Shown: positions 5,222 to 54,388 of the stretch, piece by piece
How the letters are laid out: each line of letters begins with the position of its first letter
How positions within the stretch are numbered: the first letter of the stretch is position 1
Source: a virus
IMG/VR virus record: IMGVR_UViG_3300031673_000011
Location: 1 to 64,000 of that record
DNA: 64,000 nucleotides
Direction: 5' to 3' (one strand)
Made by a program: the position numbers and the translations under genes
Notes under the pieces: generated by a model
What the model saw: only the letters and a program-made list of their open reading frames with translations
Database searches by the model: none
What the model was told of the DNA's origin: nothing

Positions 5222-5482
5222 TTAAACTACCCCAGCTTGTCTTAAACTAGTATAAGTTACAGCGATTCCAATTCCTAGAATTGAAAGTGCAAAGAAACCT
5301 GGAACTAATTTTAAAACTGTAGCACCCCATCCAGTTGTGTTATATAATGCAGAGTTACAACTTGTTCCTGATAAGGAATGATTTGAACTACATGCTGCAG
5401 TTAAAACTTCATCTGAAATTGGTCCAATTAAGCTAGTACCTAAAAGGATTGAAACAAAACCACCGATAAGATTTGCTATCAT
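5222..5482 (-). CDS. Spindle-virus-type capsid protein paralogue (VP3-like) with Cys-bracketed loop insertion
   Basis: Near-identical to 5492-5722 at both ends; two hydrophobic helices, ...GATVLKLVPGFF...; loop insert ACSSNHSLSGTSC. Confidence 0.7.
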   Translation of the reverse strand: MIANLIGGFVSILLGTSLIGPISDEVLTAACSSNHSLSGTSCNSALYNTTGWGATVLKLVPGFFALSILGIGIAVTYTSLRQAGVV

Positions 5483-5491
5483 TTTTTATCC

Positions 5492-5722
5492 TTAAACTAT
5501 CCCAGCTTGTCTTAAACTAGTATAAGTTACTGCGATTCCAATTCCTAGAATTGAAAGTGCAAAGAAACCTGGAACTAATTTTAAAACTGTTGCTCCCCAA
5601 CCAGTTGCATTATATAATGCACTATTAGTTGCTGCTGCAGTATTTACTTCTGTAGCAACGGGACCAATCAAACTTGTTCCTACCAATATAGACACGAATC
5701 CACCTATAAGATTTGCTATCAT
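5492..5722 (-). CDS. Spindle-virus-type major capsid protein (SSV1 VP1/His1 MCP-like hydrophobic hairpin)
   Basis: LIGGFVSILVGTSLIGPVATEV-loop-TGWGATVLKLVPGFFALSILGIGIAVTY matches the remembered fusellovirus VP1 pattern (IGIVLLPVIVSQV...TGTNATLLNLVPLFYILVLII). Confidence 0.72.
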   Translation of the reverse strand: MIANLIGGFVSILVGTSLIGPVATEVNTAAATNSALYNATGWGATVLKLVPGFFALSILGIGIAVTYTSLRQAGIV

Positions 5723-5775
5723 ATTATTTTTTTGTTATTTGTTAAGCCTCCAATGGAAATATTATAATTTCTTGG

Positions 5776-5811
5776 TTATATAAATGTTTGTGATTTGAGA
5801 ATTTTTCAGAA
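5776..5811 (-). promoter_or_regulatory. Class II (capsid-gene) promoter TTCTGAAA-N8-AATCACAAACATTTATATAA
   Basis: TATA-like box about 55 bp upstream of the capsid ATG; same motif and spacing at 45374-45409. Confidence 0.7.
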
Positions 5812-5846
5812 TGGGGAGTTTTACTAGTAGAAACTTTTAGGTTTTT

Positions 5847-5881
5847 GTTACTACTATATAGTGATTAGAAAAGTTTATAAA
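5847..5881 (+). promoter_or_regulatory. Class I promoter: GTTACTACT box, purine-rich BRE, TTTATAAA
   Basis: First of 18 copies with the GTTAC box exactly 27 bp before the TATA box. Confidence 0.8.
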
Positions 5882-5905
5882 GGGTGGTTTCCTAATATTA
5901 TCACA

Positions 5906-6103
5906 ATGGATTGGACATATTGGAATGATAAATATATCTTTGTTAAACTAAAGAGTGGAGCAGTTTATTCTGGAAAAGTTATTGATGTAGATGTTTCTAA
6001 TGAAAAATTAATTTGGTTTACTATAACTGATAAAAAAGATGAAAGAATTACTTTCCCGAATTCTGAAATTGTTAAATTAAAGGAGGAAGAAGAAAATGAA
6101 TGA
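5906..6103 (+). CDS. Small Sm/LSm-like beta-barrel protein
   Basis: KYIFVKLKSGAVYSGKVIDVD resembles the Sm1 motif; start moved to the ATG downstream of the promoter. Confidence 0.45.
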   Translation: MDWTYWNDKYIFVKLKSGAVYSGKVIDVDVSNEKLIWFTITDKKDERITFPNSEIVKLKEEEENE

Positions 6104-6641
6104 AACAAATTTTATAGAAGATATTAATTATGCAATATCAGATAATATTAGAAGTAGAAATTATCAAACTATTATAAGAAATTTTAATGTTAAAAGTTTT
6201 GATGCAAAAGAATTAGAAGAAGGAAAAGATAACTATGATTTCATATGTAAATTAAAAGATGGAACACAATTAAAACTTGAATTTAAAAATAGAAGAATTG
6301 GAAATAAATATGATGATGTAGCCTTAGAAGTTTATAATGATGATGAAACTAAAACTCCTGGTTGGGTTTTTAAACTCATAGAAAATGATGTAGATTATGT
6401 AATTTACACTTGGCACGAAAAACCAAAAAAGGGATACATAATTCTTAAAGCAAAAGAATTAGAAAAATGGTGGAGAAATAATTTTAACAATTATGGATTA
6501 AGAATAAACAAAATTTCATATAGAGAAGGAAGTATGTGGCAAAGTTCTTGGTGTCCTGTTCCTATCAAAGATATCCCTACAAATATTATTTATAAATATG
6601 AAATCTTTCCAGACTTACAAAATTTTTGGAGTGGAATATGA
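6096..6641 (+). CDS. PD-(D/E)xK nuclease (restriction endonuclease-like)
   Basis: YDFICK...KLEFKNRR motif, then ALEV...PGW. Confidence 0.6.
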   Translation: MNETNFIEDINYAISDNIRSRNYQTIIRNFNVKSFDAKELEEGKDNYDFICKLKDGTQLKLEFKNRRIGNKYDDVALEVYNDDETKTPGWVFKLIENDVDYVIYTWHEKPKKGYIILKAKELEKWWRNNFNNYGLRINKISYREGSMWQSSWCPVPIKDIPTNIIYKYEIFPDLQNFWSGI

Positions 6642-7084
6642 GTATTCTTAATTATGATAAAGAAGGAAATTTAATTGTTCCTTTTACTGGAAAGAAAACA
6701 AAAGCTTGGTCAGAAATTAAAAGAGAAAGAAGAAATGAAGAAGAAAAACAGAAGTGGAAAGCAATTAATGAAAAAACCAAACCATGGGCAAATGATGGGA
6801 AAATATATACTGATGAACAATTTAAAATAGTAATTGATGGAAATTCTAACGATGAAGAAAACCTTATTAAAGTTGGGAAACAATTTGGAAGAAAAGCAAC
6901 AGCAATAAGAGAATTAAGATTATTTAGAAATAGATATTTGAATGATGGAAAGATACCACAATGCTTTTGGGGTCAATCACATTCCAATGGACCACACAAT
7001 TTACCAAATAAACCAGACCATCAAGGACAACAATTAAAAAGGATAATAGATGAAATGCCAGATTATTATAAAGGATTTATATAA
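6638..7084 (+). CDS. Hypothetical protein
   Basis: ORF coupled by ATGA overlap to the upstream gene. Confidence 0.6.
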   Translation: MSILNYDKEGNLIVPFTGKKTKAWSEIKRERRNEEEKQKWKAINEKTKPWANDGKIYTDEQFKIVIDGNSNDEENLIKVGKQFGRKATAIRELRLFRNRYLNDGKIPQCFWGQSHSNGPHNLPNKPDHQGQQLKRIIDEMPDYYKGFI

Positions 7085-7085
7085 G

Positions 7086-8210
7086 ATGAATATACAAATT
7101 GATAAAGAATTTAAAAATTTAATACCCCCCCTAATGGATGAAGAATATGAAGGTTTAAAAGAAAACTTAAAAAGAAATGGTTGTGAAGAACCATTAACAT
7201 TATGGAATAACTTTATAATTGATGGACATAATAGATATGAAATTTGTACTAAAAATAAAATAAAATTTAAGGTTATTAAAAAGAAATTTAAAAACAAGGA
7301 TGATGTTAAAGTTTGGATTATAAATAAACAGCTTGATAGAAGAAATATTTCTAAATATGATAGAACAAGATTAGCATTGAGGAAAGAAGAAATATTAAAA
7401 CCTATTGCTAAGGAAAATCAGAAAGGGGGTAAAGGGGGTAAGTTGCTTCCGCCAATATTGGCAAAAGCAGACACAAGAGAAACCATATCTAAACTTGCCA
7501 AGGTAAGTCATGGAACTGTTGATAAAGTTAAATATATAGAACAAAAAGCTCCAAAAGAAATTAAGAAACAACTTTCAAAAGGAGAAGAAACAATTAGTGG
7601 GGCATACAACACTTTGAAAAGAGCAGAGAAAGAAGAAAAGCGAGAACAAGAAAGAAAGGAAGATAAAAAGAAAGCAGAAAAAGTAAAATCTCCAGAAGAA
7701 TTATTTAAAGAAGTAAAATTTACAACAGTAGTTATTGACCCTCCTTGGGATTTAAATGATGAAGGAGATACCAATCAAATGGGAAGGGCTAAACCAAATT
7801 ATTCTACAATGTCAATTGAAGAACTAAAGAAACTTCCAATACCAAATATAATAAAAAAAGATGCTCACATTTATTTATGGATTACAAATAGAAGTTTATA
7901 TAAAGGATTTGAATTACTTAAGGCATGGGGATTTAGATATATAGTTTGTTTAACTTGGTGTAAACCCTCTTTTGGAATGGGAAATTACTTTCGTGGTTCT
8001 ACAGAACATCTTTTATTTGGTATAAAAGGAAGTCTTCCATTAAAAAATAAAAATACTGGAACTTGGTTTTTAGCAAAACGTGGAGAAGGGGGGCATAGTT
8101 CTAAACCAGATGAACTTTATGAATTAGTTGAAAAATGTTCTCCAGGATTATATTTAGATTATTTTGGAAGGAAAGAGAGAAAAGGTTGGTATTCTTATGG
8201 AGTTAAATAA
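7086..8210 (+). CDS. ParB-like domain fused to MT-A70-family adenine methyltransferase
   Basis: N-terminal LIPPL...IIDGHNRY (ParB/Srx); C-terminal VIDPPW, HIYLW, TEHLLFG, HSSKP. Confidence 0.85.
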   Translation: MNIQIDKEFKNLIPPLMDEEYEGLKENLKRNGCEEPLTLWNNFIIDGHNRYEICTKNKIKFKVIKKKFKNKDDVKVWIINKQLDRRNISKYDRTRLALRKEEILKPIAKENQKGGKGGKLLPPILAKADTRETISKLAKVSHGTVDKVKYIEQKAPKEIKKQLSKGEETISGAYNTLKRAEKEEKREQERKEDKKKAEKVKSPEELFKEVKFTTVVIDPPWDLNDEGDTNQMGRAKPNYSTMSIEELKKLPIPNIIKKDAHIYLWITNRSLYKGFELLKAWGFRYIVCLTWCKPSFGMGNYFRGSTEHLLFGIKGSLPLKNKNTGTWFLAKRGEGGHSSKPDELYELVEKCSPGLYLDYFGRKERKGWYSYGVK

Positions 8211-8221
8211 ATCTTAATTTT

Positions 8222-8256
8222 GTTACTACTATTAAGTGGTGGGAAAGATTTATAAA
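8222..8256 (+). promoter_or_regulatory. Class I promoter
   Basis: GTTACTACTATTAAGTGGTGGGAAAGATTTATAAA. Confidence 0.8.
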
Positions 8257-8277
8257 GGTTAAATTCATTAATCCAAA

Positions 8278-8433
8278 ATGGAAAACGAAGAAACTGATGA
8301 AGAAGTTGAACAGGAAGAACCTGAAGAACAAGATAAAGAAACTTCAGAAGAATCTCCTAAAGAAGAATCTGAAGAAAGCTCAGATGAAAGCGAGTCTCAA
8401 GACCAAGAGACTGCTGAAGATTCTGAAGAATAA
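8278..8433 (+). CDS. Hyperacidic 51-aa protein
   Basis: MENEETDEEVEQEEPEEQDKETSEESPKEESEESSDESESQDQETAEDSEE; ATG 22 bp after the TATA box, followed by a T-rich terminator. Confidence 0.65.
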   Translation: MENEETDEEVEQEEPEEQDKETSEESPKEESEESSDESESQDQETAEDSEE

Positions 8434-8471
8434 CAATAAAGTTCTTAAGTTAATATTTTTTTTATTTTTTT

Positions 8472-8506
8472 GTTACTACTATATAGTGATTAGAAAAGTT
8501 TATAAA
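8472..8506 (+). promoter_or_regulatory. Class I promoter of the replication operon
   Basis: Identical to the 5847 copy. Confidence 0.8.
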
Positions 8507-8534
8507 GGGTAGGTGTTTGGTAAAGGACTACAAA

Positions 8535-8786
8535 ATGGAAACGGTTATGGATAAAATTGAACGATGGAAGCTTCTCACTAATTTATTTATCAAAAAAAAT
8601 ACAAAGACATTCATCCGTGAGCTTAATGGAGATTTTCATTTCTGTACTATAATTCTTGTTGATGATGATTATATTTCAATAAAGAACTTTGGTCCTGAAC
8701 AAAGAGCAGGGACAGAAGAAAAAATTTATTGGTATAATATTTCTGAGTTAGATGAATTTAAAGAAAGGGGGGAAGGGAATGGATAG
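8535..8786 (+). CDS. Small beta-barrel (Sm/SH3-like) protein
   Basis: TFIRELNGDFHFCTIILVDDDYISIK beta-strand pattern. Confidence 0.4.
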   Translation: METVMDKIERWKLLTNLFIKKNTKTFIRELNGDFHFCTIILVDDDYISIKNFGPEQRAGTEEKIYWYNISELDEFKERGEGNG

Positions 8787-9942
8787 AGCGATAAATAAAA
8801 CCACTCAACAAATAGTTTCTGCATTTGAAATTCATAATAATGGTTCTTATCAAAACTTAGAAAAAGGAGAATGGATTGCTCCAAAAGATTCCATATACAA
8901 TTGGGAAGAATTAGAAAAGAAAGAAGAACCAGTTCATTATGTTTCTGAAAAAGAGTTTAATAATTTTAAAGGAACTAAAGTTGTTTGCTCTCCTTGTTTT
9001 TCGGTATATCCAGGTTCTTTAGCAAAAACAGTTGAAGAAAGTAAAGAACACAAAATGTTAAAAGATTGGTTATTCAACCGATTAAAAAATGATGACTTAG
9101 AAATAAGATATTCAAAAGGAACAAAACCTCATAAATATGATAATAAATTAAAATTGTCCAAATTAAATATAAACTGGAATGATTATGAAATTGAAGTTAC
9201 AACAAAAGGAACTAAAAAATTAAGGGCAGATATATTGCTTCCTTTTAAAAAGAAAGATATATTCTTAGGAAATGGAATAATATTTGAAGTTCAATTAAGT
9301 AGTCAAAATGAAGTACAAACTTACGAAAGAACTATTGAAAGAGCCTTACATGGATATTCTGTTGTTTGGTTATTTGAAAACGATTTTATAATAGAAGAAG
9401 ATAATATTAAACTAAAAGAAAATATAGTTAATGTAAATAGTTTTAGTGAACAAATGCACTTTGCCAAAAAGGGTTTTGTAAAAAAATTAAAATTTGTTGT
9501 TGAAAATCAATGTAGATTATTAGATGAAAAAATAAAGGAAACCAATCTTGAAATGGATAAACTAATTAAACAGACAAATATAGAAAGAGAAAGATTAGAT
9601 AATAAAAAAGAAGAAATATATAATGAAATTTTAAAAAGATTAAATTCAAGAGAAATAATATTATTTCAAAAGATAGAATCACTCGAAGGAAATCCATTTA
9701 AAGGATTTGTAGAAAATTATAAACAACAAATTCAAGAATGCTTTAATAATTTAGAATTTAATCTTAATAATTCTTTTAAAGAAAAAATGGAAGAACTAAA
9801 TTATCCCTTAACTTTAGGAGAATGTAATAAGTGTCATCAAGGATATATGCACTATAAAATAACAAGAACCGGAAAAGAAGTATATAATTGTAGCAATTAT
9901 CCTCTATGTAAAAATACTGTTTGGTTAAATAAGAAAGACTAA
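8779..9942 (+). CDS. CoiA-like PD-(D/E)xK nuclease with coiled coil and C-terminal C4 zinc ribbon
   Basis: ESKEHKMLK, RADILL...IFEVQLS; terminal CNKC...CSNYPLC. Confidence 0.65.
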   Translation: MDRAINKTTQQIVSAFEIHNNGSYQNLEKGEWIAPKDSIYNWEELEKKEEPVHYVSEKEFNNFKGTKVVCSPCFSVYPGSLAKTVEESKEHKMLKDWLFNRLKNDDLEIRYSKGTKPHKYDNKLKLSKLNINWNDYEIEVTTKGTKKLRADILLPFKKKDIFLGNGIIFEVQLSSQNEVQTYERTIERALHGYSVVWLFENDFIIEEDNIKLKENIVNVNSFSEQMHFAKKGFVKKLKFVVENQCRLLDEKIKETNLEMDKLIKQTNIERERLDNKKEEIYNEILKRLNSREIILFQKIESLEGNPFKGFVENYKQQIQECFNNLEFNLNNSFKEKMEELNYPLTLGECNKCHQGYMHYKITRTGKEVYNCSNYPLCKNTVWLNKKD

Positions 9943-9943
9943 T

Positions 9944-12640
9944 ATGGTAAAAATAAAAATAATAAAAGATACAGAAAAATGTAAAGTTGGAGAAATAGTT
10001 AAAACTTCCAAAAAGTCTGCTGAGTCTTATGTTGATGAAGGTTATGCTGAATATGTTGAAGAACTTCCTAAAATAGAGAAATCAAAAGCTAAAGACCCAA
10101 AAGAAAAAATTAAATCAACTACCCCACCAAAAATTATTCTTACAGAAGAACAAATCAATTCAACAATAAAAGAAATATCAAAATTAGAAATGCCTTTAGA
10201 AATTAATAAGAAAATAAGAAAACTATCTAAAGATTCTGAATTATCACTACAAACATTACAAAAACAATTAAATTATGAAAAAAAAGAGAATAAGAAAGGT
10301 ATATCCAATAGTGGTGATACTAATGTTACTAATGTTACTAATGTTACTAATGTTACTAATGTTATATATCCATGGGTAACATTAGTAACACGTAACAAGG
10401 CAATATGGGATTCACTTTTCAGTGATAAAACACTTGACAGAATAATGAAGTTTTTAGCAGAAGGAGATAGGGCTTTTACATACGATGAAATAGCAAAAAG
10501 ATTGGGCTTACCAGTTACAACAATTAAAATGACAATAAGTAGAAATCAGGAGCTTTTTGGAAGAAAATACCCAAATGGCAAAATTTGTTACGCATTTTGT
10601 TACGCACCGTGTGTTGCGTTGATTCAGCAAAAAATTAAGGATTATGAAGAAAATTTGCTAAAAATTAAAGAAAGAGAACTTGAACAGAATACCATTCAAA
10701 CTAAGAGTCAAAAGATAGTTCAGGAATTTAAAAATTTTTACAAACTACACAAGAAAGAACTAGGAAATTCTTTCAGACAAGGAAATAATGTTTTATATTT
10801 AGATTTTATTAAATTATCAGAGTTTGATTTATTTTTAATAGATGAATTAACTTTAAACCCAGAAGAAACATTAAAACTATTTGAATTAGCTATTGAAGAT
10901 TTAGGTTTAATAAAGAATCCAAGAGTAAGAGTAATCAATCTTCCAAAAGATTTAAATTTAAATATTGAAGAGTTAAGGTCCAAGCATCTAAATGAATTAA
11001 TTTCTTTATCTGGAAGAATTATTACTTTAAGTGATGTAAGACCCCAATGTGTAAATGCAAAATTTGAATGCCCAAGCTGTGGGACAGTCATATCTGTTCT
11101 TCAAATTGAAAAGAAGTTTAGGGAGCCTTCAAGATGTTCTTGTGGGAGAAAGGGAGGATTTAAATTAATAGATAAAGAGATGATTGAAACTGCAAGATTA
11201 ATATTAGAAGACTTACAAGAAAAAACAGATAATCCCCATGCCAAAAGATTAAATTGTTTTTTGAAAGAAGATTTACTTTCTTATGAATTAATGAGTTTAT
11301 ATAATCCAGGGGGAGAGGTTGAGATGGTTGGTATATTAAAAGAAGTTCCTGTTCCACTAAAGGAAGGAGGAATATCTACTAGATTTGAACAAGCCTTTGA
11401 AATAAATTCTATTATTTCTTCTAAAGAAGAAATAGAGGTTGATAAACTTTCTAAAGAAGAAATAGATAAAATAAAAAAATTATCTAAAGTAATTGATGAA
11501 GAAGGATTAGAAAAAATAACTTCTTCATTCTGTCCAAGCATTTATGGATATGATGAAGTGAAGAAAGCTTTAGTATTACAATTAGCCGCACAAAGAAATA
11601 AGATTGGTAAGAAAAGTGAAATAACAAAACCAAATATATTATTAATTGGTGACCCTGGGACTTCTAAAACTATTTTAGGAGAATTTTCTGTTACAATAAC
11701 TCCAGGAGCTAGAAAATCTGTTGGGGGTTCTGCTTCTGCTGTAGGATTTACAGGAGCAGTAGTTAGAGATGATTTTTCAGGTGGTTGGAGATTAGAACCA
11801 GGAGCAATTGTTTTAACTAAAGATTTGTTTATGTTAGATGAGTTAAATAATATTAAAGATGAAGATAAACCAAGATTACAAGAAGCATTATCCGAACATA
11901 CTATTACTGTAGATAAAGCAACAATTCATACAAAACTATCTGCTCCTTCTTGTTGTCTAGCAACAGCAAATCCAATCCATGGGATATTCAAAGAGAATGA
12001 GGACTTAGTCACTCAGTTTAATTTAAATCCTGCAATCATAAACAGGTTTGATATTATTTTTGTTGTTAAAGATATTGTTAATGAAGCTAAGGATTTTAAG
12101 ATTGCTAAGAAGATGAATGATAGAGAAATGAAAAAGTTATCATTTGATTACTCTGAAGATTTATTGACAAAGTTCTTCATCTATGTTAAAGAACAACCAG
12201 AACCACAAATGACAGAAGAAATTTCAGATAGAATGGCTGCAATATATTCTAGGTTAAGAAGGTATAAAACAGATTCATTAAATATAAATCCTAGAGTTCA
12301 TAAAGCATTTCAATTATTTTGTAAAGCTTCTGCAAGGATAAGATTATCAGAATATATAGAAGAAAAAGATATTGAAAGATCTTTAGAAATATTATCTGAA
12401 TCTTATTTTAAAACACCATCATATATACATTTTAAAATAGAAAAAAAAGTAAATACCCCTACAAATAAGAATATTAAAATCAAATCTATTGTTTCAACCA
12501 AAATTGTTGTTCTAAAAGATGGGGAACCATTTAACTTAACTTTGGAATCTGGGGAAATTTATAAGAAAGAAGAGTTTGGAGATGATGCAGAACAGACTAT
12601 TGAGATATTAAAAAATGATGGGAAGGTGGAGGAAGTTTAG
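9944..12640 (+). CDS. mcm: MCM replicative helicase with long N-terminal extension containing an HTH
   Basis: Zn finger CPSC...CSC, Walker A GDPGTSKT, SAVGFTGAV, LEPGAIVL, Walker B MLDE, ANP, Arg finger NRFD; HTH TYDEIAKRLGLPVTTIKMTISR. Confidence 0.95.
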   Translation: MVKIKIIKDTEKCKVGEIVKTSKKSAESYVDEGYAEYVEELPKIEKSKAKDPKEKIKSTTPPKIILTEEQINSTIKEISKLEMPLEINKKIRKLSKDSELSLQTLQKQLNYEKKENKKGISNSGDTNVTNVTNVTNVTNVIYPWVTLVTRNKAIWDSLFSDKTLDRIMKFLAEGDRAFTYDEIAKRLGLPVTTIKMTISRNQELFGRKYPNGKICYAFCYAPCVALIQQKIKDYEENLLKIKERELEQNTIQTKSQKIVQEFKNFYKLHKKELGNSFRQGNNVLYLDFIKLSEFDLFLIDELTLNPEETLKLFELAIEDLGLIKNPRVRVINLPKDLNLNIEELRSKHLNELISLSGRIITLSDVRPQCVNAKFECPSCGTVISVLQIEKKFREPSRCSCGRKGGFKLIDKEMIETARLILEDLQEKTDNPHAKRLNCFLKEDLLSYELMSLYNPGGEVEMVGILKEVPVPLKEGGISTRFEQAFEINSIISSKEEIEVDKLSKEEIDKIKKLSKVIDEEGLEKITSSFCPSIYGYDEVKKALVLQLAAQRNKIGKKSEITKPNILLIGDPGTSKTILGEFSVTITPGARKSVGGSASAVGFTGAVVRDDFSGGWRLEPGAIVLTKDLFMLDELNNIKDEDKPRLQEALSEHTITVDKATIHTKLSAPSCCLATANPIHGIFKENEDLVTQFNLNPAIINRFDIIFVVKDIVNEAKDFKIAKKMNDREMKKLSFDYSEDLLTKFFIYVKEQPEPQMTEEISDRMAAIYSRLRRYKTDSLNINPRVHKAFQLFCKASARIRLSEYIEEKDIERSLEILSESYFKTPSYIHFKIEKKVNTPTNKNIKIKSIVSTKIVVLKDGEPFNLTLESGEIYKKEEFGDDAEQTIEILKNDGKVEEV
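10319..10396. repeat. (ACTAATGTT)x5 tandem plus inverted copies inside mcm; iteron-like
   Basis: Five exact 9-mers at 10319-10363, then GTAACATTAGTAAC (reverse complement) at 10376-10389. Confidence 0.9.
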
Positions 12641-12649
12641 GACAAATAA

Positions 12650-13039
12650 ATGATTTTACAATATTCAAAATGTGTAATGAAGCATTTTATTAATCCCAAG
12701 AACATGGGGGAAATAAAGAATGCAGATGGAATTGGAAAGGTTGGCAATTTAAGATGTGGTGATATAATGTGGATTTATATCAAAGTTAAAAATGATAAGA
12801 TTAAAGATATTAAATTTAAAACATTTGGATGTGTTGCTGCAATTGCAACTTCATCAATGATTACACAGATTATAAAAGGAAAAAGTATAAAAGATGCTCA
12901 AAAAGTAAAATATCAGGATATTGTAAAATTTTTGGGAGGACTGCCACCTATAAAAATTCACTGTTCACATTTGGCTCAGGAAGCTTTAAAAAGAGCTATT
13001 AAGGATTATGAAAAAAAAGATAAGGAAAATGAAAAATGA
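12650..13039 (+). CDS. iscU: IscU/NifU-type Fe-S cluster scaffold
   Basis: HFINPKNMG, GNLRCGD, FKTFGCVAAIA, LGGLPPIKIHC with the three conserved Cys. Confidence 0.93.
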   Translation: MILQYSKCVMKHFINPKNMGEIKNADGIGKVGNLRCGDIMWIYIKVKNDKIKDIKFKTFGCVAAIATSSMITQIIKGKSIKDAQKVKYQDIVKFLGGLPPIKIHCSHLAQEALKRAIKDYEKKDKENEK

Positions 13040-16939: not shown

Positions 16940-16967
16940 GGTACGAGACATTAATAAATTAAATAAA

Positions 16968-17255: not shown

Positions 17256-17726
17256 ATGGAACCAGAAATAAAAAAGATAAATTCATTGTTAAAGTTTTAT
17301 TATAAGAATGATGTTGATATTGCTTTAAAAATTAAATCATTAATTCCTTTAATAGTGAGGGGAAAGATAATGAAGAAGAATTATATTGGAGATAAATATA
17401 TAATAATGAGGGGAAGAGAAATTACTTCCAATACATATAAGAATCCAATAAAGATTTTTATAGAAGATGTAGAGTTGAATTCAATTATTCCTCTTGATTA
17501 CGAAAGAAAAGAAAATAAAAATAAAAGGTCTCCCCTTCCTCCAGCATTAAGATATAAGATATTAAAAAGGGATAGAAACACATGTCAATCCTGTGGTGCT
17601 CGTTCCCCTGAAGTTGAATTAGAAGTAGATCATAAGATTCCTGTTTCAAAAGGGGGGACAGATAATGAGGATAATTTAATAACTAGATGTAGGGATTGCA
17701 ATAGGGGGAAGTCAGATCAATATTAA
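17256..17726 (+). CDS. HNH endonuclease
   Basis: RDRNTCQSCG...EVDHKIP..KGG...N..TRCRDCN. Confidence 0.88.
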   Translation: MEPEIKKINSLLKFYYKNDVDIALKIKSLIPLIVRGKIMKKNYIGDKYIIMRGREITSNTYKNPIKIFIEDVELNSIIPLDYERKENKNKRSPLPPALRYKILKRDRNTCQSCGARSPEVELEVDHKIPVSKGGTDNEDNLITRCRDCNRGKSDQY

Positions 17727-18307: not shown

Positions 18308-18766
18308 ATGACAAACGAATACATTCCAGATAAAGATGCTAGTTTAGGTTTAATTTTTAGATTGAATAATTTATGGGCTGAGATTGATCTTGTATCTTCT
18401 AATGGAAAATATGACATTTGGAATTACAAATTAGATTGTATATATCGTAATCTTTCATTTAGAGAACCAATGGTTCCAGAAGTTGATAAAGTAACAGGGA
18501 AAATAATTAATGTTTTAGTTTCTGAAAAAGATTTAAAAATATATAGATATCTTTCTATGGAAGTTGCAAGAACAAGAATGGCTTCTTTAAGAAATAGGAA
18601 TCCAAAACTAAAATATCAAAAAAGAAGTGAATGGTATTATGCAATCCAAAAGAAAGATATGTACCTTAGGAAATTTATGCAGGTCTTGAAATTATATCTA
18701 AAGGAAACAGAACAAACTCCTGGAAATACAATGTACGGGATTTCTAAAAAAAGGCGTCAAAGATGA
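18308..18766 (+). CDS. Hypothetical protein coupled to the ATPase gene
   Basis: ATGA overlaps on both sides. Confidence 0.6.
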   Translation: MTNEYIPDKDASLGLIFRLNNLWAEIDLVSSNGKYDIWNYKLDCIYRNLSFREPMVPEVDKVTGKIINVLVSEKDLKIYRYLSMEVARTRMASLRNRNPKLKYQKRSEWYYAIQKKDMYLRKFMQVLKLYLKETEQTPGNTMYGISKKRRQR

Positions 18767-42142: not shown

Positions 42143-42148
42143 TTTTAA

Positions 42149-42185
42149 AGCCCTTTAAAAAGGGCTCTTTTTCTTTTTTTTTTAT
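42149..42185 (+). terminator. Hairpin plus long T tract after the S-layer gene
   Basis: AGCCCTTT-AA-AAAGGGCT then T-rich run. Confidence 0.6.
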
Positions 42186-42262
42186 TTTCTTCTTAATGTC
42201 TTAGTGTAACTACTATTAAGTGGTGGGAAAGATTTATAAATGGTAAATCATTCTTTAAATAG

Positions 42263-45134: not shown

Positions 45135-45343
45135 TAGAGCATCTATATTTGCCTGACTTTTTATAAGGAAAATTTTTATTTCTTTTTCTCTTTTCCTTTT
45201 TTTTGTTTCTCTTTTCTGATTCCATAAGAGAGTTCATTTTTCAATTGGAATATTTTTGGGGTTTCTGATGAGAGGAATTTAACTGTGGCCCTTTTTTCTT
45301 TTATTGATAACCTTATTGTCATACAATATACAGATGATTAAAT

Positions 45344-45409
45344 TATATAAATGTTTGTGGTAATTTAGCTGATTTCTGAAATCACTTAAAATCACAAACA
45401 TTTAAATAA
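45344..45409. promoter_or_regulatory. Divergent class II promoters around the palindrome GATTTC-T-GAAATC
   Basis: CACAAACATTTAWATAA on both strands; palindrome at 45371-45383. Confidence 0.65.
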
Positions 45410-45429
45410 TCTTATATACTGAATTCTCT

Positions 45430-45972
45430 ATGGAACAAAAAAATATAAACTTTTTAGTTTTAGCTTTTGTATTTCTAATTATAGGTGTAGCATTAATTGG
45501 TTCGGTTGCTTCAAATGTTAGTGATAGAACAGATAAAGTAACTATCCTCGATGAAGCATTAGACATTAGTGCTGCTAGATTAGGAGATGCTATCTTAAGC
45601 ATAGATGATACACATGCTTTTACCATAACTAATTACCCTACTAGTTGGAAAATTTTAGATTGTCCAATTACTGACTTTGTATTTAAAAATCAAACAGGTG
45701 TTGCTACAACTGTAGCCTCAGACTATGCTTTTTTCCCAGCTAATGGAACTTTAGTATTAGTAAATTCATCTGTATACCATGATGATGGTACAATACAGAT
45801 TCTTAATACAACAACTATGGATTATACATATTGTGCTGATGACTATCTTAATTCTACTTGGGGAAGATCAGTATTAAACACAGTACCAGGTTTCTTTGCA
45901 CTAGTCTTATTGGCTGGTTCATTATGGCTATTCTATAATGTTTTTAGGAATGTTGGAATTATCAAAGGATAA
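45430..45972 (+). CDS. Capsid-protein paralogue with a large inserted ectodomain (minor virion protein)
   Basis: LIIGVALIGSVASNV...STWGRSVLNTVPGFFALVLL matches the two helices of 5492-5722; the insert has N-x-S/T sequons and two Cys. Confidence 0.65.
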   Translation: MEQKNINFLVLAFVFLIIGVALIGSVASNVSDRTDKVTILDEALDISAARLGDAILSIDDTHAFTITNYPTSWKILDCPITDFVFKNQTGVATTVASDYAFFPANGTLVLVNSSVYHDDGTIQILNTTTMDYTYCADDYLNSTWGRSVLNTVPGFFALVLLAGSLWLFYNVFRNVGIIKG

Positions 45973-46077
45973 AATTATATTAAGTTGAAATAGAAGAGAA
46001 CTATTCTCTCTTCTTTATCTTGGTGTTACCACTTTTAAGTGATTAGAAAGATTTATAAAGGGTGAATCTTTGTTAAT

Positions 46078-46494
46078 ATGATGGAAAATAAGAACTGGAA
46101 AATTTTTATATTATGTTTTATAGTAGTTCTTTTAATGATCTTTTTAGTCTTTTTAACAGTAGAATTATTTAATAATGAATTCGCAAATGTTAATACAAAT
46201 GAATCTATAAATGTTGACACAAGTGTTGATGTTAAAAATGTGATAGAATATATGAAAGATAATAATATTACTATCTATGGTTCTACGAAATGTTCTTATT
46301 GTCAAAAACAATTAAAAGAGTTTCAACCATATCAGGAAGAAGCTATTGAAGAAGGGGTTTTTATTTTTTGTGATTTAAATCAGGATATAGGTTGTATAGG
46401 AATAGAATCGGTTCCTTCTTGGAAAAAGGATGGAAAGATAGTTCATGAAGGATACTTACCACTTGAAAGTATTGGGGAAAACTATTCATGGTAA
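46078..46494 (+). CDS. Membrane-anchored thioredoxin/glutaredoxin-like protein
   Basis: N-terminal TM, YGSTKCSYCQKQ, cis-Pro motif SVPSW. Confidence 0.7.
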   Translation: MMENKNWKIFILCFIVVLLMIFLVFLTVELFNNEFANVNTNESINVDTSVDVKNVIEYMKDNNITIYGSTKCSYCQKQLKEFQPYQEEAIEEGVFIFCDLNQDIGCIGIESVPSWKKDGKIVHEGYLPLESIGENYSW

Positions 46495-46527
46495 ATATTT
46501 ATACAATTGAAAAGGAGGTGAAATAAA

Positions 46528-46848
46528 ATGTCAAATTTAAAAGAAACAGCACAGGCATATGAGCCAAAGAAAACACTTAACATTGCAGATTTAGATAGAG
46601 TTGACCTTACTTGGCCTGTTGAAAGTAGAACAGGTGTAACAGTAAAACAAGATGAAGAAGGAAAAGATTATGAAGAATCTTATTCATATAAGGTTATGAT
46701 TGTTAATGAGATAGAATATAGGGTTCCAAACACTGTGCTTGAAGAAATACAGAAGATGGTTGAATTAGTACCAGAATTACAATTTGTTAATGTTGATAAA
46801 ACAGGTTCTGGTTATGGAACAAAATATTCTGTAAAGAAAGTAAAATAA
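46528..46848 (+). CDS. Hypothetical protein, possibly ssDNA-binding beta-barrel
   Basis: Strong GGAGGTG RBS; EYRVP...KTGSGYGTKYSV. Confidence 0.4.
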   Translation: MSNLKETAQAYEPKKTLNIADLDRVDLTWPVESRTGVTVKQDEEGKDYEESYSYKVMIVNEIEYRVPNTVLEEIQKMVELVPELQFVNVDKTGSGYGTKYSVKKVK

Positions 46849-47015
46849 TTACCAACTTTACAAAATAAATTTATTATTTTTTGCCCCAATGTTTGTGGGG
46901 TTCATATTCATAAAAATGAAAAAAAAGAAAACTAAAATAGGTTTAGGCCAAAGAGTTGAACCAAAAACAATTCCTGCAATAAGGAAAGGAAAACAAATAT
47001 GGAAAAAGAATTAAA

Positions 47016-47405
47016 ATGGAAAAGAAAAAAGAACCACTAAGAATACAAATGAGAGAAAATCCTTGGATAGTTTGGACATTTGCTTTGGGAATATTATTTG
47101 TTTTAATGTGTGTAATAAGTATTTATAAAACAGAAGTTAAAACAGAAAACGAAATACTTTGTTCTGTAATTGGAGCAACTCCAGCATGGGCAGATGCTAA
47201 TGGGAAACTTATTTCTTATGGGGCTATAATACCAACAGAGCAATCAATAGATTTAGTAGGGGCTGTATTAATCCCAGAGAGAATAAAGCTTCTTTATGTT
47301 CCAGGATGTAGTGCTTGCCAAAATCAAATTAATTACTTTAAGGAACAAGGCACTTGGGATAATTATGTAAAGGAAGGTTTAACTGTGGATTGCAGTAAAT
47401 ATTAA
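47016..47405 (+). CDS. Membrane-anchored CxxC thioredoxin-like protein
   Basis: TM, LYVPGCSACQNQ...VDC. Confidence 0.55.
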   Translation: MEKKKEPLRIQMRENPWIVWTFALGILFVLMCVISIYKTEVKTENEILCSVIGATPAWADANGKLISYGAIIPTEQSIDLVGAVLIPERIKLLYVPGCSACQNQINYFKEQGTWDNYVKEGLTVDCSKY

Positions 47406-48249
47406 AATGAACACAAAAAAATATATTGAAATGGTTAATAGGGCAGTAAAGGAGGGAAAGCATAATAGACCAATAAAAGTAGTTTATACAAAAAACAAAC
47501 CTATAACAGAAGGGCAACAAGGAGTTGCTTCTCATATTAATATGAAAAAATATGATAGAATTGCTATTTGGAAAGGATTACCAAGAAATTATGAGGAGAA
47601 AATTAAAAGAGAAAAAGAATTAAGTGAAAAATTAGGAAAAAAAGTTGAAGTGATTACAAGAGAAGATGCTCTTAGGCATGAATTATGGCACGTTCATAAA
47701 CCTTATGCTTCGGAAAAAGAAATAAGATGTAAATTAGAAAAAAAAGATTTACCAAATAAATTACCAACAAGGAGAAGATTCTAATGATAATACACAACTC
47801 AAACGAATGTCTATGTAATGAATCACTTTCAAATGGAAATGAAAAATAAACTTATTATTTTTTTACCCGAATGTTAGTCGGGTTCATAATCATAAAAAAC
47901 AAAAGGGAGGTATAAAATGTATATAGAATTACAAGGAAAAGAACTTAAGAAAGATTGGAAAGCTTTAGCAAAGAGTGCAAAAGAAAGTGACCCAAATGAT
48001 AAAAGTATTGGAGAAGAAGAGAGATTATTAATTGATAATGATGAAGAAGAAATTGTAGCTTTAGAATTTAATGAAGCTGATGAAAAAATATTCTTTGCTT
48101 TTACAAATAAGTATGGATATTTTTCATTCAGTATTCCTTTGAATGATGGTTTGATGTTTGAAATTGTAGAATGCTTAAAATCAAAAGGGAAAAAAATAGA
48201 AAGGTTAATTGATTTGAACAAGTAAAATAATTAAGCACTATAAATTAAA

Positions 48250-50466: not shown

Positions 50467-50489
50467 AATTAAAAGAGGAAATCATTAAA

Positions 50490-51050: not shown

Positions 51051-51952
51051 TAAAACAAGATATTGAAATAGAAAAATTTGTAATTCCTTTTTCTAAGGGG
51101 GGACTTGGAGGTAGATTAAAATGTTTATTATATTCTAAAGAGATATTTTCAAATACAAAAAGAAAGATATTACTCTATTGGGAAAATAACAAGTATTGTA
51201 ATTGTAATTTTTCTGACTTATTTGATAAAGATATTGTAGAAATATCAAAAGAAGAATTAAGAGAGATAATTAAAAGGGATAATTTTCAAATATTAACAAA
51301 AGATATAGATAATGAAAAAAAGTATATCTTGATTGGAGATTTAGGTAGAGCCTTTGCAGGATTTTATGGTTCATTGGATATTCCTTTAGGAGAGAAGTTA
51401 AAAGAATTAAATATAAAGAAAGAAATACAGGAAGAAATTAATCAATATAAACTTCCAGAAGATGTTATTGGGGTTCATATAAGAAGGGGAGATTTTAGGA
51501 CAATTCCTGTGGGGGAGGTTTCTACAGATGAAAGGTTTATTGAAGCAATGAAAAAGGAGATTAAATTAAATAAGAGAGTTGTATTTTTTTTAGCGACAGA
51601 TGAAAAAGAAACAGAGGATAAGTTTAAGAGAATATTTGGTAATAAAATAATTTCCCATACCAAACAAATAGAAGAAAATTCTTTTAGGGAAGGAACTATT
51701 AAGGATGCTTTGATTGAATTATTATTATTATCAAAATGCAAAAAGATATTGGGGAGCTTTGGTAGTACATTCTTGGAAATTGCGTGGGAATTTGGATATA
51801 GAATACCAAAGATTATAATTGTTAAAGATGAAGAAAGATTAAAAATATGCAAAGTAAAAGAGAGAGGGAAAGATAATTGGTTTAACCAAATTAAAAAAAT
51901 GATATATGAAACTATCACCCCTTTACATATAAGACTATTAGATAAAATTTAG
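51047..51952 (+). CDS. Fucosyltransferase-like GT-B glycosyltransferase (GT11/GT23-like)
   Basis: GGLGGRL, GVHIRRGDF, FLATD, GSFGSTF. Confidence 0.78.
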   Translation: MIKQDIEIEKFVIPFSKGGLGGRLKCLLYSKEIFSNTKRKILLYWENNKYCNCNFSDLFDKDIVEISKEELREIIKRDNFQILTKDIDNEKKYILIGDLGRAFAGFYGSLDIPLGEKLKELNIKKEIQEEINQYKLPEDVIGVHIRRGDFRTIPVGEVSTDERFIEAMKKEIKLNKRVVFFLATDEKETEDKFKRIFGNKIISHTKQIEENSFREGTIKDALIELLLLSKCKKILGSFGSTFLEIAWEFGYRIPKIIIVKDEERLKICKVKERGKDNWFNQIKKMIYETITPLHIRLLDKI

Positions 51953-52307
51953 GAGGTTTATAAAATGATAAAAAAAATATTTACTTGGATTGGTGGGATT
52001 ATAAACATAATTTTAATTCTAGCATTAATTTTATACCCTTGGATAGTTAAAGGTGAAAATCCAATTACATTTTATTGGAGTTGTCTAAGGGAGCTTTGGC
52101 AAGTGATAAAAGAACCTGGATTATTAAGTAAATTCATTAGTTTGTTCAATTGAAAGGAGGTATAAAATGTCAAGAGATAAAAAGATAAAGAAAAGTGTTG
52201 ATAAAATCCATAAAGAAGCAGATAAGATAGAAAAAGAAGTTGCACCAAAGAAGGTATCAATGTATGGTGATCCAATCGTGAAGATTTTCTAAAACATTTT
52301 TTAACAA

Positions 52308-53039
52308 ATGGTTAAAACTTATAGTGGTAAATCTCCTAGAAATGCAAGGATAAAGATAGATTATACAGGAGAATGTCCTTCTGTAAGTTTTAAATATCCA
52401 AGGAAAGATGGTTATGTGGGATCTATGACTCATTTAGTATTTCTTGTTTGGATTTTATTTTGTTCGATTTGTTATATTTTTTTTAGTTTGACTGTACTTG
52501 TCCAAGATATCTCGCAAGATATTTCACAAAATAATACTTCAGTTAATGAAACACTAGTTAATGGTTATGGAAATGAAACTTATTTAATGGATAAAAGTGA
52601 ATTAATAAGAAATATTTTAACTTTATTAATACTTTTTATCCCACCACTAATTATCAATAAACTATTTAAAAAGAAGTTAAATGCTTTGTTCCCAATATAT
52701 CAAGCATGGAGAGCAGACAAAAAGTATGTTGAATTTAAAGCTAAAGATATAAAGACTTCAATAGTAAATGGAAAAAAAGAAATTTATGTTGAAATCCCCT
52801 ACTTTCAAAATATAATTCTAAAATATGAAGCAACTAAAGACTTTTCAAAATATTTGGATATCATGGAAATAAAAGAACAAAACTTTAAAACAAAAGAATA
52901 TTCTAGTAAGGAGAAGAAATGGAAAGAAAGAAAAAAGAAGAAAAGAAAAGTTAAAAAACAAAATGAATGGTATTGGTATGCTAAATTTTACTTTAATGAA
53001 GTTCCAAAAAATGGGAAATTAAGTGTAATTTACAAGTGA
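52308..53039 (+). CDS. Two-TM membrane protein
   Basis: Two hydrophobic segments flanking an N-glycosylation-rich loop. Confidence 0.55.
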   Translation: MVKTYSGKSPRNARIKIDYTGECPSVSFKYPRKDGYVGSMTHLVFLVWILFCSICYIFFSLTVLVQDISQDISQNNTSVNETLVNGYGNETYLMDKSELIRNILTLLILFIPPLIINKLFKKKLNALFPIYQAWRADKKYVEFKAKDIKTSIVNGKKEIYVEIPYFQNIILKYEATKDFSKYLDIMEIKEQNFKTKEYSSKEKKWKERKKKKRKVKKQNEWYWYAKFYFNEVPKNGKLSVIYK

Positions 53040-53309
53040 TGTTACCCCTTTTAAGTGGTGGGAAACATTTAAATACTCTTGATTTATTAATATAATGGGA
53101 AAAATGGTAAGTAATAAGGTTGATTCTAAGAAAGTATTTGTTCATTATTTGGATAGAGATAGAAGTGGAAAAGACTTTGATGTTCAAGGATATTTTGAAG
53201 TAATAGAAGAAGGAGAAAAATTTTTAGTGATTAAGTCAGAAAAAAATACAATTAAGATTCCTTATGGAAGGTTAATAAAGATGAAAGGGGGTAATAATTA
53301 AGATATAAG

Positions 53310-53873
53310 ATGATAGGAATAGGATTTATAATTTTAGCAACATTCTTGTTTTTAATATTTGTATCAATAGGTGGGGTAGTATCTTCATATAATGGATTTG
53401 TAACATTAACACAAGATATTAGAACACAATTTTCAAATATTATAACAGAATATCAGAGAAGAACAGATTTATTCTATAACTTGGTTCAATCAGTTAAATC
53501 TTTTAAGACACACGAAAAGTCTACCTTAAAGGAAGTAATTGAAGCAAGGAATATGAGCTTTGGACAATCAAAGAAACAAGACATAAAAAATATGGCTAAA
53601 CTTGATGGATTGTTTTCAAAACTGTTAGCAGTAGTTGAACAATATCCAAACTTAAAAGCAGATACACAGCATAATAAGTTAATGGATGAGATAAGAATAA
53701 CAGAAGATAGAGTAAATATTTCAAGAACAGACTATAATAATATAGTGAATACTTATAATGTAAAAGTTAAAAGATTCCCAAGTAATATTATAGCAGGAAT
53801 GTTCAACTTTGATTTAGAAGGATATTTTAAAGGTCAAGAAGGAATAGAACAATCTCCAAAAATAAGTTTATAA
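53310..53873 (+). CDS. lemA: LemA family protein
   Basis: N-terminal TM, YQRRTDL, VEQYPNLKA, EDRVNISRTDYN, FPSNIIA. Confidence 0.9.
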   Translation: MIGIGFIILATFLFLIFVSIGGVVSSYNGFVTLTQDIRTQFSNIITEYQRRTDLFYNLVQSVKSFKTHEKSTLKEVIEARNMSFGQSKKQDIKNMAKLDGLFSKLLAVVEQYPNLKADTQHNKLMDEIRITEDRVNISRTDYNNIVNTYNVKVKRFPSNIIAGMFNFDLEGYFKGQEGIEQSPKISL

Positions 53874-53965
53874 GATGGAAGAAAAAAATGATTCAATTAA
53901 GCACTATGAAAAACTTAGAGATAAGTTTACCAATAGGGAACAAGATGAATCAGATGAAATAGAAG

Positions 53966-54388
53966 ATGAATAAATTTATTTTAATAGGGAGTGGAATTAT
54001 CCTTCTTGGTTTTTTTATTTTATTATTTTTAGTTTTTAAAGCAAGAAAGAAACATAAAGCAATAAAGCATTATGAAGAGTTGAGAGATAAGTTATCTGTT
54101 AGAGAATTAGAAAAAGAGACTGGAATAACAGAAGATGAATATAATAATTATAATGGATCTAGTGTAGGTAGTATAATTCGTGGATTTATTGTTTTGTTAG
54201 TTGGAGTTAGTTTAATGAAACCAATTCAAGAGCAATTAGGTATTGCAGTTACAAATGGAGAATTAACTGGGGTGTCCCAGCAATTAGTAAACTTAGTTCC
54301 AATATTTTTTGCTGGAACAATTTTAATAATTGTATTAGGAATTGTAGTAAATGGTTTTGGTGGTTTAAAAAGTTCTGGATTGGTTTAA
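53966..54388 (+). CDS. Capsid-protein paralogue with N-terminal TM extension
   Basis: IIRGFIVLLVGVSLMKPIQEQL...TGVSQQLVNLVPIFFA...LKSSGLV. Confidence 0.6.
   Translation: MNKFILIGSGIILLGFFILLFLVFKARKKHKAIKHYEELRDKLSVRELEKETGITEDEYNNYNGSSVGSIIRGFIVLLVGVSLMKPIQEQLGIAVTNGELTGVSQQLVNLVPIFFAGTILIIVLGIVVNGFGGLKSSGLV

Follow-up and report, generated by a model that had tools for sequence, protein, structure and literature searches.

The question raised by IMG/VR record IMGVR_UViG_3300031673_000011 is what kind of genetic element carries four genes for one small two-helix protein, and whether this protein is the coat protein of a virus. The stretch analysed here, called the window, comprises bases 1-64000 of one contig of 86,566 bp, which is classed as a virus record; positions are those of this 64,000-nt window unless marked "contig", in which case they refer to the full 86,566-bp record. 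With good confidence, the element could be identified as the complete circular double-stranded DNA genome of an uncultured archaeal virus, large in size and with a spindle-type coat homologous to VP1, the shell protein of fuselloviruses.

The four coat paralogues

Two short coat genes were identified in tandem on the minus strand. Copy 1 (5492-5722, 76 amino acids (aa)) encodes a short VP1-type two-helix hairpin, which is the probable major capsid protein (MCP). Copy 2 (5222-5482, 86 aa) is its tandem paralogue with a Cys-bracketed loop insertion, 88% identical to the 76-aa copy and with 10 residues added between two Cys. This tandem arrangement resembles, as an analogy, that of VP3 beside VP1, and tandem coat pairs were also observed in the relatives G001, G002, G286 and L009. 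The other two genes are located on the plus strand. Paralogue 3 (45430-45972, 180 aa) could be read as a VP1-type hairpin with a beta-rich domain within its loop, which is longer by about 100 residues. Paralogue 4 (53966-54388, 140 aa) possesses the VP1-type core at residues 64-140, and its N-terminal extension of about 62 residues contains a hydrophobic helix of its own and a charged linker.

In the alignment, all four copies share a common core, which is composed of an N-terminal hydrophobic helix (..G.SL..P), a loop, a second helix (..LVP.FFA..) and the end ..G(I/V/L)V. The hydrophobic segments of the 76-aa protein cover residues 1-20 and 43-68, with an equivalent pair in the other three copies, and its one NxS/T sequon is located in the loop. 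The 180-aa and 140-aa paralogues showed 37-38% identity to the short copy, and both helices and the LVP.FF motif were retained in them. A preliminary description of the window had distinguished the copies by a Cys-bracketed loop, an inserted ectodomain and an N-terminal hydrophobic extension, and these differences are real in the alignment.

A short-type profile was built from 27 sequences, including both short copies of the window, with the 180-aa and 140-aa proteins left out. When it was searched against the 364 open reading frames (ORFs) of at least 40 aa of the circularised contig, the 180-aa protein was found at E=1.5e-17 (both helices) and the 140-aa protein at E=2e-13; beyond the four copies and one weak ORF of 69 aa, no score was better than E=0.09. 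Since a profile made without the long paralogues singled them out among 364 ORFs, the resemblance of the four copies is above chance, and the four ORFs with one two-helix scaffold could be confirmed at the coordinates where they had been placed before.

No Pfam family was assigned to any of the four coat paralogues. In PHROGs, all four copies matched phrog_11172 or phrog_5402, both annotated as 'virion structural protein' (best E=1.2e-6 to 1.5e-4). The 76-aa copy matched phrog_11172 at E=3.7e-6 and phrog_5402 at E=2.4e-5, the 86-aa copy matched phrog_5402 at E=1.2e-6, and the 140-aa copy matched phrog_11172 at E=1.5e-4, with its residues 62-128 on positions 64-131 of the 137 of the profile. 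When the 76-aa protein was compared with all PDB sequences, chain 7XDI_A (VP1 of SSV19) was the sole match with E<0.1; its residues 18-81 were aligned with residues 4-69 of the query at E=1.1e-4. The 27-sequence profile found the same chain at E=2.4e-9, and the runner-up stood at E=0.18. On account of the single-sequence and profile matches in PDB together with the PHROG families, the four two-helix proteins are, by sequence comparison, homologues of the fusellovirus shell protein VP1, in agreement with the fusellovirus-type capsid that had been proposed for them.

The coat family is large. A word-indexed protein search with the 76-aa copy gave 1224 homologues, and the best 120 of these 1224 showed 78-95% identity. 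The family contained 546 members when counted as representatives at 50% identity clustering (E<=0.001), and 354 loci were found in JGI metagenomes. By a rough geometric classification, the best 150 of the 546 representatives fell into 31 short, 17 C-extended, 69 loop-insert, 29 N-extended and 4 other forms; these counts indicate that the three architectures of the window are conserved subfamilies and no local accidents. For the 180-aa paralogue, 55 full-length orthologues with 35-97% identity were obtained, while the loop of short homologues was variable in length and often carried Cys pairs and sequons. A tblastn search of the 76-aa coat protein against a phage collection returned nothing, and in this search the low-complexity filter may have masked the query.

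The AlphaFold2 model of the 180-aa protein, made from an alignment of 47 sequences (pLDDT 83.6), consists of a helix at residues 3-32, a beta-rich domain at 36-135 and a second helix at 143-175. The protein is predicted to be a VP1 hairpin with a separately folded beta-rich domain, a beta-sandwich, in its loop. The best match of the model in BFVD was a viral protein of 187 aa (E=5e-5), and orthologues were present in the relatives G002, G003, G004 and G005:C27. Six sequons were counted in the protein, with 1.9 expected. This enrichment, and the loop which varies in length and carries Cys pairs in the family, suggest that the inserted domain would face outward. The earlier idea that loop insertions serve to display domains on the capsid thus gained a beta-rich domain that folds separately in the model; its surface display and its presence in the virion would follow if the paralogue is part of the coat.

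In the divergent intergenic region 5' of coat gene 1 (5723-5860), a TTTATATA box is located some 55-62 nt ahead of the start codon ATG; it is no more than compatible with an archaeal promoter of TATA type.

Two further places were noticed in the coat searches. The 69-aa ORF (contig 64268-64477, minus strand), just beyond the window, matched the coat profile at E=5e-7 with the order of the helices swapped: its residues 42-67 align with the first helix and residues 2-21 with the second. It could be a permuted relative or an artefact of composition. A candidate for a further coat copy at contig 69109-69459 was rejected, with E=7.3 for the short-type profile, E=0.47 for a four-copy profile and no PHROG match.

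The genome and its gene content

The first and last 142 nt of the contig are repeated ends (141/142 identical), therefore the contig represents a unit of 86,424 bp (G+C content 28.7%) which is either circular or terminally redundant. No tRNA gene (0) and no Rfam match (0, rRNA included) was detected. Protein families were assigned with a Pfam scan of all ORFs of at least 150 aa (54/54) and a PHROG scan of 24 proteins. Among the 54 ORFs, Pfam revealed no ribosomal or housekeeping gene and no HK97 capsid, portal or terminase, where very divergent forms could escape; no VirB4/TraG/CedB-type ATPase, coupling protein or relaxase was found in them either, and no DNA polymerase by Pfam. Likewise, no HK97 capsid, portal or large terminase was identified by PHROGs among the 24 proteins. 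These results support the view that the element is a virus genome, neither a chromosome nor a conjugative plasmid. The lack of HK97 capsid, portal and terminase, already remarked in the preliminary description, was confirmed by Pfam and holds also for the 22 kb that its author had not seen. The cellular chromosome, which had been considered there, can be dismissed, as the record is a virus record with neither tRNA nor Rfam matches and with no housekeeping genes among the 54 ORFs scanned.

A conserved P-loop ATPase of 331 aa (18763-19758, plus strand), with Walker A (GVGKTT) and Walker B (VIIYDE) motifs in its translation, may correspond to the ATPase found together with the MCP in spindle viruses. 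Its orthologues showed 36-46% identity in G001-G004 and L035 and 28% in G286, and in smaller relatives (G004, G286) the ATPase gene adjoins the MCP gene divergently. In the ATPase family, phrog_38691 was matched by 10/15 members. A partner gene of 152 aa (18308-18766, plus strand) lies just upstream of the ATPase gene, with orthologues in G001-G004 and L035 and with no Pfam or PHROG match.

Coat-bearing loci were found in IMG/VR by pattern scans. Three of these relatives have direct terminal repeats and were rated 100% by CheckV, with genomes of 36.9, 40.8 and 46.4 kb; each of them contained 3-4 coat-profile matches, among them a loop-insert open frame of 174-184 aa. According to tblastn, the core held in common with relatives is composed of the short coat gene (often in tandem), the loop-insert paralogue, and the ATPase with its 152-aa partner. 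Further members of this core are a 916-aa protein, a trio of 207, 232 and 234 aa and a four-helix membrane protein of 154 aa, with a second AAA ATPase in some relatives. In a metagenome-assembled genome (MAG), a contig of 24.3 kb whose ends are repeated was found to carry a reduced set, with the coat pair, the ATPase, a resolvase and homologues of the 916-aa and 207-aa proteins. In addition, a metagenome contig of 70,454 bp carries an MCP with 91% identity together with the ATPase.

In the element studied here, the gap between the ATPase and the coat genes is 12.5 kb, and it is filled by methylases, MCM, NifU and an intein-bearing gene. This spacing is wider than in the small relatives, which suggests growth by insertion between core genes, and the 86.4-kb genome is about 2 times the size of the complete relatives. 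The preliminary description had spoken of a lineage much larger than fuselloviruses of 15-25 kb. The 86,424 bp of this genome bear that out, while as a general statement it was overstated, since the relatives have 24-46 kb and a contig of 72.6 kb is already in print.

Genes are on the plus strand from about 5.9 to 61.5 kb, and on the minus strand from 61.6 kb across the junction to 5.7 kb. The minus arm contains the two short coat genes and putative structural genes. Directly downstream of the short coat genes, a giant secreted and sequon-rich protein of 1714 aa is encoded (3-5009, minus strand, continuing across the junction to contig 86289). It has an N-terminal hydrophobic signal and no Pfam family, and it contains 133 NxS/T sequons, compared with 59.5 +/- 6.3 in shuffles (z=11.6); it is a probable adhesin or fibre. 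Past this gene the order is 403, 207, 232 and 234 aa, and farther along 1351 and 916 aa. For the 207-aa protein, AlphaFold2 predicted from an alignment of 15 sequences (pLDDT 80.3) a signal helix, then a beta-sandwich (residues 37-120) and a group of three helices (124-205). A signal sequence is present in the 916-aa protein, together with three hydrophobic helices at the C-terminus and 36 sequons where 16.5 would be expected. Sequon enrichment was limited to predicted extracellular proteins (z=11.6, 5.7 and 3.2), and in four enzymes (MCM, SNF2 helicase, B12-radical SAM enzyme and DUF5131 protein) z was from -0.6 to 0.5. In a report on SSV19 (PMC9351363), the adaptor B210 is composed of a beta-sandwich and a three-helix bundle, the tailspike VP4 is a large glycosylated protein ending in a three-helix bundle, and these bundles form a ring which joins the tail to the shell.

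Within the 22 kb past the window, a sugar cluster was observed with a GT1-like glycosyltransferase, a DegT aminotransferase-cupin, a GDP-mannose 4,6-dehydratase, a methyltransferase and a GT2, besides several large proteins without known families. The 1351-aa protein (contig 77321-81376, minus strand), also beyond the window, has a composition quite unlike that of the remaining proteome: it contains no Cys and no sequons, with Asn 1.0%, Lys 12.5%, Glu 10.1% and Pro 6.7%. It gave no Pfam, PHROG or PDB match, and a homologue with 26% identity was present in L009. It could be a virion protein located inside the particle or associated with DNA.

For replication, an MCM-type helicase with an N-terminal helix-turn-helix region was identified on the plus strand (9944-12640; PF00493 E=9.3e-52, plus MCM_OB and MCM_lid). 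It is followed directly by a full-length NifU-like Fe-S scaffold protein (12650-13039, plus strand; PF01592 E=6.8e-46), near radical-SAM genes. A DUF5131/radical-SAM-like protein of 596 aa (14908-16698, plus strand) appears to be interrupted by an intein, with an Intein_splicing match at residues 139-475. The second AAA-type ATPase (30874-31647, plus strand, 257 aa) matched phrog_1250 at E=4e-25 and, weakly, Pfam AAA_14 and AAA_16; its identity was 51% in G004 and 28-31% in G001, G002 and G005:C27. The serine recombinase (resolvase) gene (25619-26185, plus strand; PF00239 E=5e-46) has homologues in G004 and G286. No intact tyrosine integrase of SSV type was found, only a 51-residue Phage_integrase match (PF00589 E=2e-6, residues 8-58) in the ORF after the resolvase, where it is fused to an HNH domain. 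For a 185-aa protein (31764-32321, plus strand; phrog_4652 E=2.9e-26), the identity with its counterpart in G002, the relative of 46 kb, was 77%, compared with 31-71% for the core genes, which suggests recent exchange.

Homing-type nuclease genes were assigned by Pfam at 17256-17726, 26170-26829, 59509-60672 and 61623-63353. This set is composed of two free-standing HNH genes, a NUMOD3-repeat protein whose end is DUF559-like and a fusion of an SNF2-type helicase with HNH, and the intein comes besides. The plus arm also contains two MT-A70 methylases, one C5 methylase, ParB, an RNA ligase, a B12-radical SAM enzyme and the two long coat paralogues, and a LemA gene lies near the latter. An S-layer-type surface protein of 712 aa (40004-42142, plus strand; PF05124 S_layer_C E=5.4e-11) stands at the start of a run of small membrane or secreted protein genes (40004-47784, plus strand), which reaches beyond the 180-aa paralogue; one gene of the run (46078-46494, plus strand) is for a thioredoxin-like protein anchored at its N-terminus. 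The run could constitute a further module for the surface or envelope which only the larger relatives possess. Orthologues of the 180-aa protein and of the S-layer-type protein were recorded on contigs of the same sizes (44428, 21200, 70454, 30552 and 11657 bp), and S-layer-type homologues were also found on contigs of 73-93 kb. A protein with a DAC (diadenylate cyclase) domain (57464-58114, plus strand; PF02457 E=1.8e-14) is a possible cyclic di-AMP synthase in an archaeal virus. As for the habitat, 64-98% of the sampled words of window 1-10000 were present in six soil-metagenome runs (2019), which is information on habitat only.

Rival readings and the host

Several results weigh against a spindle-shaped virus with all four paralogues in its coat. 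The 180-aa and 140-aa genes are 40-48 kb away from the short coat genes, amid membrane-protein genes, and no separate orthologue of the 140-aa type was found in the four IMG/VR relatives. Both proteins are putative virion components, and the inserted domain may be displayed. Foldseek with the 180-aa model gave no PDB match at E<=0.001 (best E=0.047). The link of the ATPase to fuselloviruses is weak: phrog_5484 ('DnaA-like'), which we take to be the SSV1 B251 family, was matched by 3/15 members (best E=2e-4), and neither the ATPase profile against PDB nor tblastn with the ATPase against the phage collection gave a match. The 207-aa and 916-aa proteins are like B210 and VP4 in domain make-up only. 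Three fold searches with the 207-aa model, Foldseek included, gave matches to three-helix bundles and Ig-like sandwiches of a generic kind, with no chain of SSV19 among those listed, and PDB sequence searches with the 916-, 1351-, 207- and 232-aa proteins and a profile gave nothing useful. Because neither sequence nor fold search confirmed homology, the likeness to tail proteins was counted as a resemblance. The lemon-shaped lineage of the preliminary description is upheld as to the VP1-type homology of the coat; the spindle shape itself we infer from one protein family of a virus known here from its genes, and related hairpin proteins of bacilliform archaeal viruses reportedly build rods (Wang et al. 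2022).

It is conceivable, if somewhat unlikely, that in a virus of this same lineage only the short copies form the coat, and that the 180-aa and 140-aa proteins are exapted membrane proteins of the infected cell, with roles such as superinfection exclusion, a membrane assembly platform or egress. Such a role would suit the distance of the long paralogues from the structural arm, in the other strand block and among small membrane-protein, S-layer-type and LemA genes, as well as the absence of the 140-aa type from the four smaller relatives and an identity to the short copy of just 37-38%. However, the helices that form the shell and the LVP.FF motif have been kept, the loop-insert type occurs in every complete relative examined and is the commonest form among the 150 best representatives (69/150), and the inserted domain is enriched in sequons, as expected if it faces outward. 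A true VP1-type coat could also build a particle that is not lemon-shaped, being rod-like, bacilliform, pleomorphic or enveloped, which we hold to be quite improbable. The size of the genome speaks for it, being several times that of characterised VP1-type viruses, fuselloviruses among them (about 15-24 kb), and about twice that of its own complete relatives. So does the spindle shell, which is malleable and lipid-associated according to the SSV19 report (PMC9351363), but the sole significant structural relative is the SSV19 shell protein, and another study (PMC9894754) reads metagenomic viruses with such coats, whose genomes reach 72.6 kb or more, as spindle-shaped.

Very improbable, by our estimate, is a conjugative or other non-viral plasmid whose two-helix proteins are pilins like VirB2 or CedA1, the alternative that the preliminary description had kept. 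Conjugative pilins are likewise two-helix hairpins of about 70 aa, and ParB, a resolvase and many DNA-modification genes are present in the element. Yet the PDB profile search gave VP1 at E=2.4e-9 and no conjugative pilin at E<=1, an absence which is no proof in itself as pilins diverge fast. No VirB4, TraG, CedB or relaxase family was found by Pfam in the 54 ORFs, and the relatives are IMG/VR virus genomes with terminal repeats and a common glycoprotein module. The pilin reading is accordingly disfavoured, and a virus with a VP1-type coat is preferred.

For the host of this virus, a DPANN archaeon of the phylum Nanobdellota, Pacearchaeota-like, is proposed with moderate confidence. Among 185,579 species genomes, two coat-bearing contigs were found, one in a Ca. 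Pacearchaeota MAG and one in a 'Mycoplasmatota' MAG (JAUVLT01). The nearest Atlas clusters of the 712-aa S-layer-type protein are mostly from Nanobdellota, and those of its homologues which bear a name are from MAGs of Ca. Pacearchaeota and Nanoarchaeota. At E<=1e-10, this protein was detected in 90/301 genomes of the phylum of the Pacearchaeota MAG, including full-length matches with 27-44% identity inside contigs of more than 400 kb, whereas 1/299 genomes was positive in the phylum of the 'Mycoplasmatota' MAG, which served as control. The single control match is the 'Mycoplasmatota' MAG itself, on a second contig with 44-48% identity, and it suggests that viral DNA was mis-binned. An archaeal host is in keeping with the MCM helicase, the enrichment in sequons and the TTTATATA box. 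The MCM was also tried as a marker of the host and discarded as uninformative, its nearest Atlas clusters being mostly viral.

Against this host it must be counted that the coat gene occurred in only 2/401 sampled genomes of the phylum of the Pacearchaeota MAG, both on virus-like contigs and not integrated, and that contigs of the coat family were also binned as 'Methanogenium sp.' and 'Mycoplasmatota'. The sole control for the S-layer-type protein was the phylum of the 'Mycoplasmatota' MAG, with no other archaeal phylum among the controls. The link to the host, made by binning and one host-like gene, is indirect but consistent. The nano-sized archaeal host proposed earlier is thus retained as a DPANN-type signal of that kind. 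Another low-G+C organism, an archaeon of a different phylum or a bacterium, which would imply that the S-layer-type gene was acquired horizontally, is less likely, though it deserves to be kept in mind. It would agree with the two foreign bin labels and with the low frequency of the coat gene in the candidate phylum. On the other side, the MAGs labelled Mycoplasmatota and Methanogenium sp. each contain two or more contigs or proteins of this virus family, and the labels of unrelated taxa are probably binning errors driven by low G+C. The 'Mycoplasmatota' MAG as the only S-layer match in 299 genomes again argues for mis-binning, the S-layer family is frequent (90/301) in the phylum of the Pacearchaeota, and the MCM, the sequons and the TATA-like box fit an archaeon.

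Place among spindle viruses and meaning

The virus resembles the Fuselloviridae (SSV1, SSV19) in its hydrophobic two-helix hairpin of about 75 aa with a short sequon-bearing loop, in the profile match at E=2.4e-9 and in the tandem paralogues. A large glycosylated protein and a small protein with a beta-sandwich and a three-helix anchor are encoded nearby, to be compared with VP4 and B210. It differs by its 86 kb, its MCM helicase and a serine recombinase in place of the SSV-type tyrosine integrase, and by having four paralogues, of which one carries a domain of about 100 aa in its loop and another is extended at the N-terminus. The host would be mesophilic with low G+C, and the sequence is from soil metagenomes. 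Both its genome size and the lack of an SSV-type integrase place the virus outside the Fuselloviridae in the strict sense.

Predicted spindle viruses of ANME-1 archaea are described in one study (PMC9894754), in which the contig of the tepeuvirus PBV144 has 72.6 kb and is incomplete. The Itzamnaviridae have two divergent MCP genes and structural and enzymatic arms with multigene insertions, and these viruses replicate with family B DNA polymerases (PMC9894754). Compared by this description only, the present virus is similar to them in its large metagenomic genome and two-arm layout, but it has MCM and no polymerase by Pfam, and its host and habitat are different. The Nanohaloarchaeota spindle viruses DNSV-1/2/3 possess an AAA+ ATPase, two MCP paralogues and a surface-type gene of more than 1900 codons, according to the part of the preprint available (bioRxiv 10.1101/2025.02.15.638363). 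A DPANN host, an ATPase with paralogous MCPs and a very large surface-type gene are shared with them. They are, however, hypersaline and have a tyrosine integrase, whereas the candidate phylum here is Nanobdellota, and insertions of domains in the MCP loop are absent from that description. Putative and isolated spindle viruses of ammonia-oxidising archaea, the Nipumfusiviridae and Thaspiviridae, have genomes of 27-38 kb (PMC10866085, PMC12451623). As described there, they are also mesophilic and widespread, with an MCP loop longer than that of fuselloviruses and a core of MCP and ATPase. They differ in their genomes of 27-38 kb and in host assignment, and no similarity was found with the coat and ATPase queries in the phage collection.

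In the full-text literature, supplementary tables being outside this scope, no spindle viruses of Pacearchaeota or Woesearchaeota, no account of this lineage, no complete 86-kb genome of VP1 type and no VP1 with a folded loop were found. In a preprint on complete genomes of Nanobdellota, virus terms had 0 occurrences. A paper by Wu, Liu & Ni (2024, Nat Microbiol 9:3362) is said to deal with DPANN viruses and may bear on novelty. Large genomes, DPANN hosts and multiple MCPs are each already in print, so the present virus extends a known kind and founds none. What is unusual here is the size, the number and architecture of the coat paralogues, and the S-layer gene of host type.

Starting from the homology to VP1, which was demonstrated, the further steps of a mechanism could be inferred as follows. 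The tandem 76-aa and 86-aa copies would form the bulk of a flexible, lipid-associated shell of helical strands, like VP1 in SSV19. The proteins of the structural arm (the N-glycosylated 1714-aa protein, the 207-aa anchor protein and the 916-aa protein with the same anchor) could provide an apparatus for adsorption or a tail, and the adjoining cluster of sugar-nucleotide and glycosyltransferase genes might supply or alter their glycans. If the 180-aa paralogue is co-assembled, its beta-sandwich would be placed on the particle surface by the outward loop. The 140-aa paralogue has a precursor-like layout, and it may be processed or be a minor or terminal component of the shell. The P-loop ATPase and the coat protein would make up the morphogenetic pair typical of spindle viruses. 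The blocks between the core genes contain genes for replication (MCM), three methyltransferases with HNH nucleases, radical-SAM enzymes and surface proteins.

That all of this holds together, namely the largest complete genome with a VP1 coat, a shell with a mixed lattice for display and a widespread clade of DPANN viruses, is doubtful at present. If true, 86.4 kb would be the largest complete genome with a VP1-type coat, about 1/8 of the bin of the candidate host, which is roughly 0.7 Mb. An ancient and conserved paralogue would then put a glycosylated beta-sandwich outward, so that a capsid protein doubles as a display scaffold, possibly for receptor binding or shielding, while the N-extended paralogue would mark special positions. 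The viruses would represent an undescribed clade of DPANN viruses, which grows by insertion of gene blocks and carries the S-layer-type protein of its own host.

Spindle-type viruses are regarded as an ancient group confined to archaea, and the knowledge of their structure comes mostly from 15-kb viruses of hyperthermophiles. A genome of 86 kb with a VP1-type coat bears on the scaling limit of the flexible shell of helical strands. The coat gene has diversified into short, loop-domain and N-extended subfamilies, which are conserved over hundreds of metagenomic sequences, and the loop-insertion paralogue offers a testable case of a capsid protein as a display scaffold. In addition, a candidate group of viruses is added for the poorly known Nanobdellota/Pacearchaeota, archaea with tiny cells and genomes.

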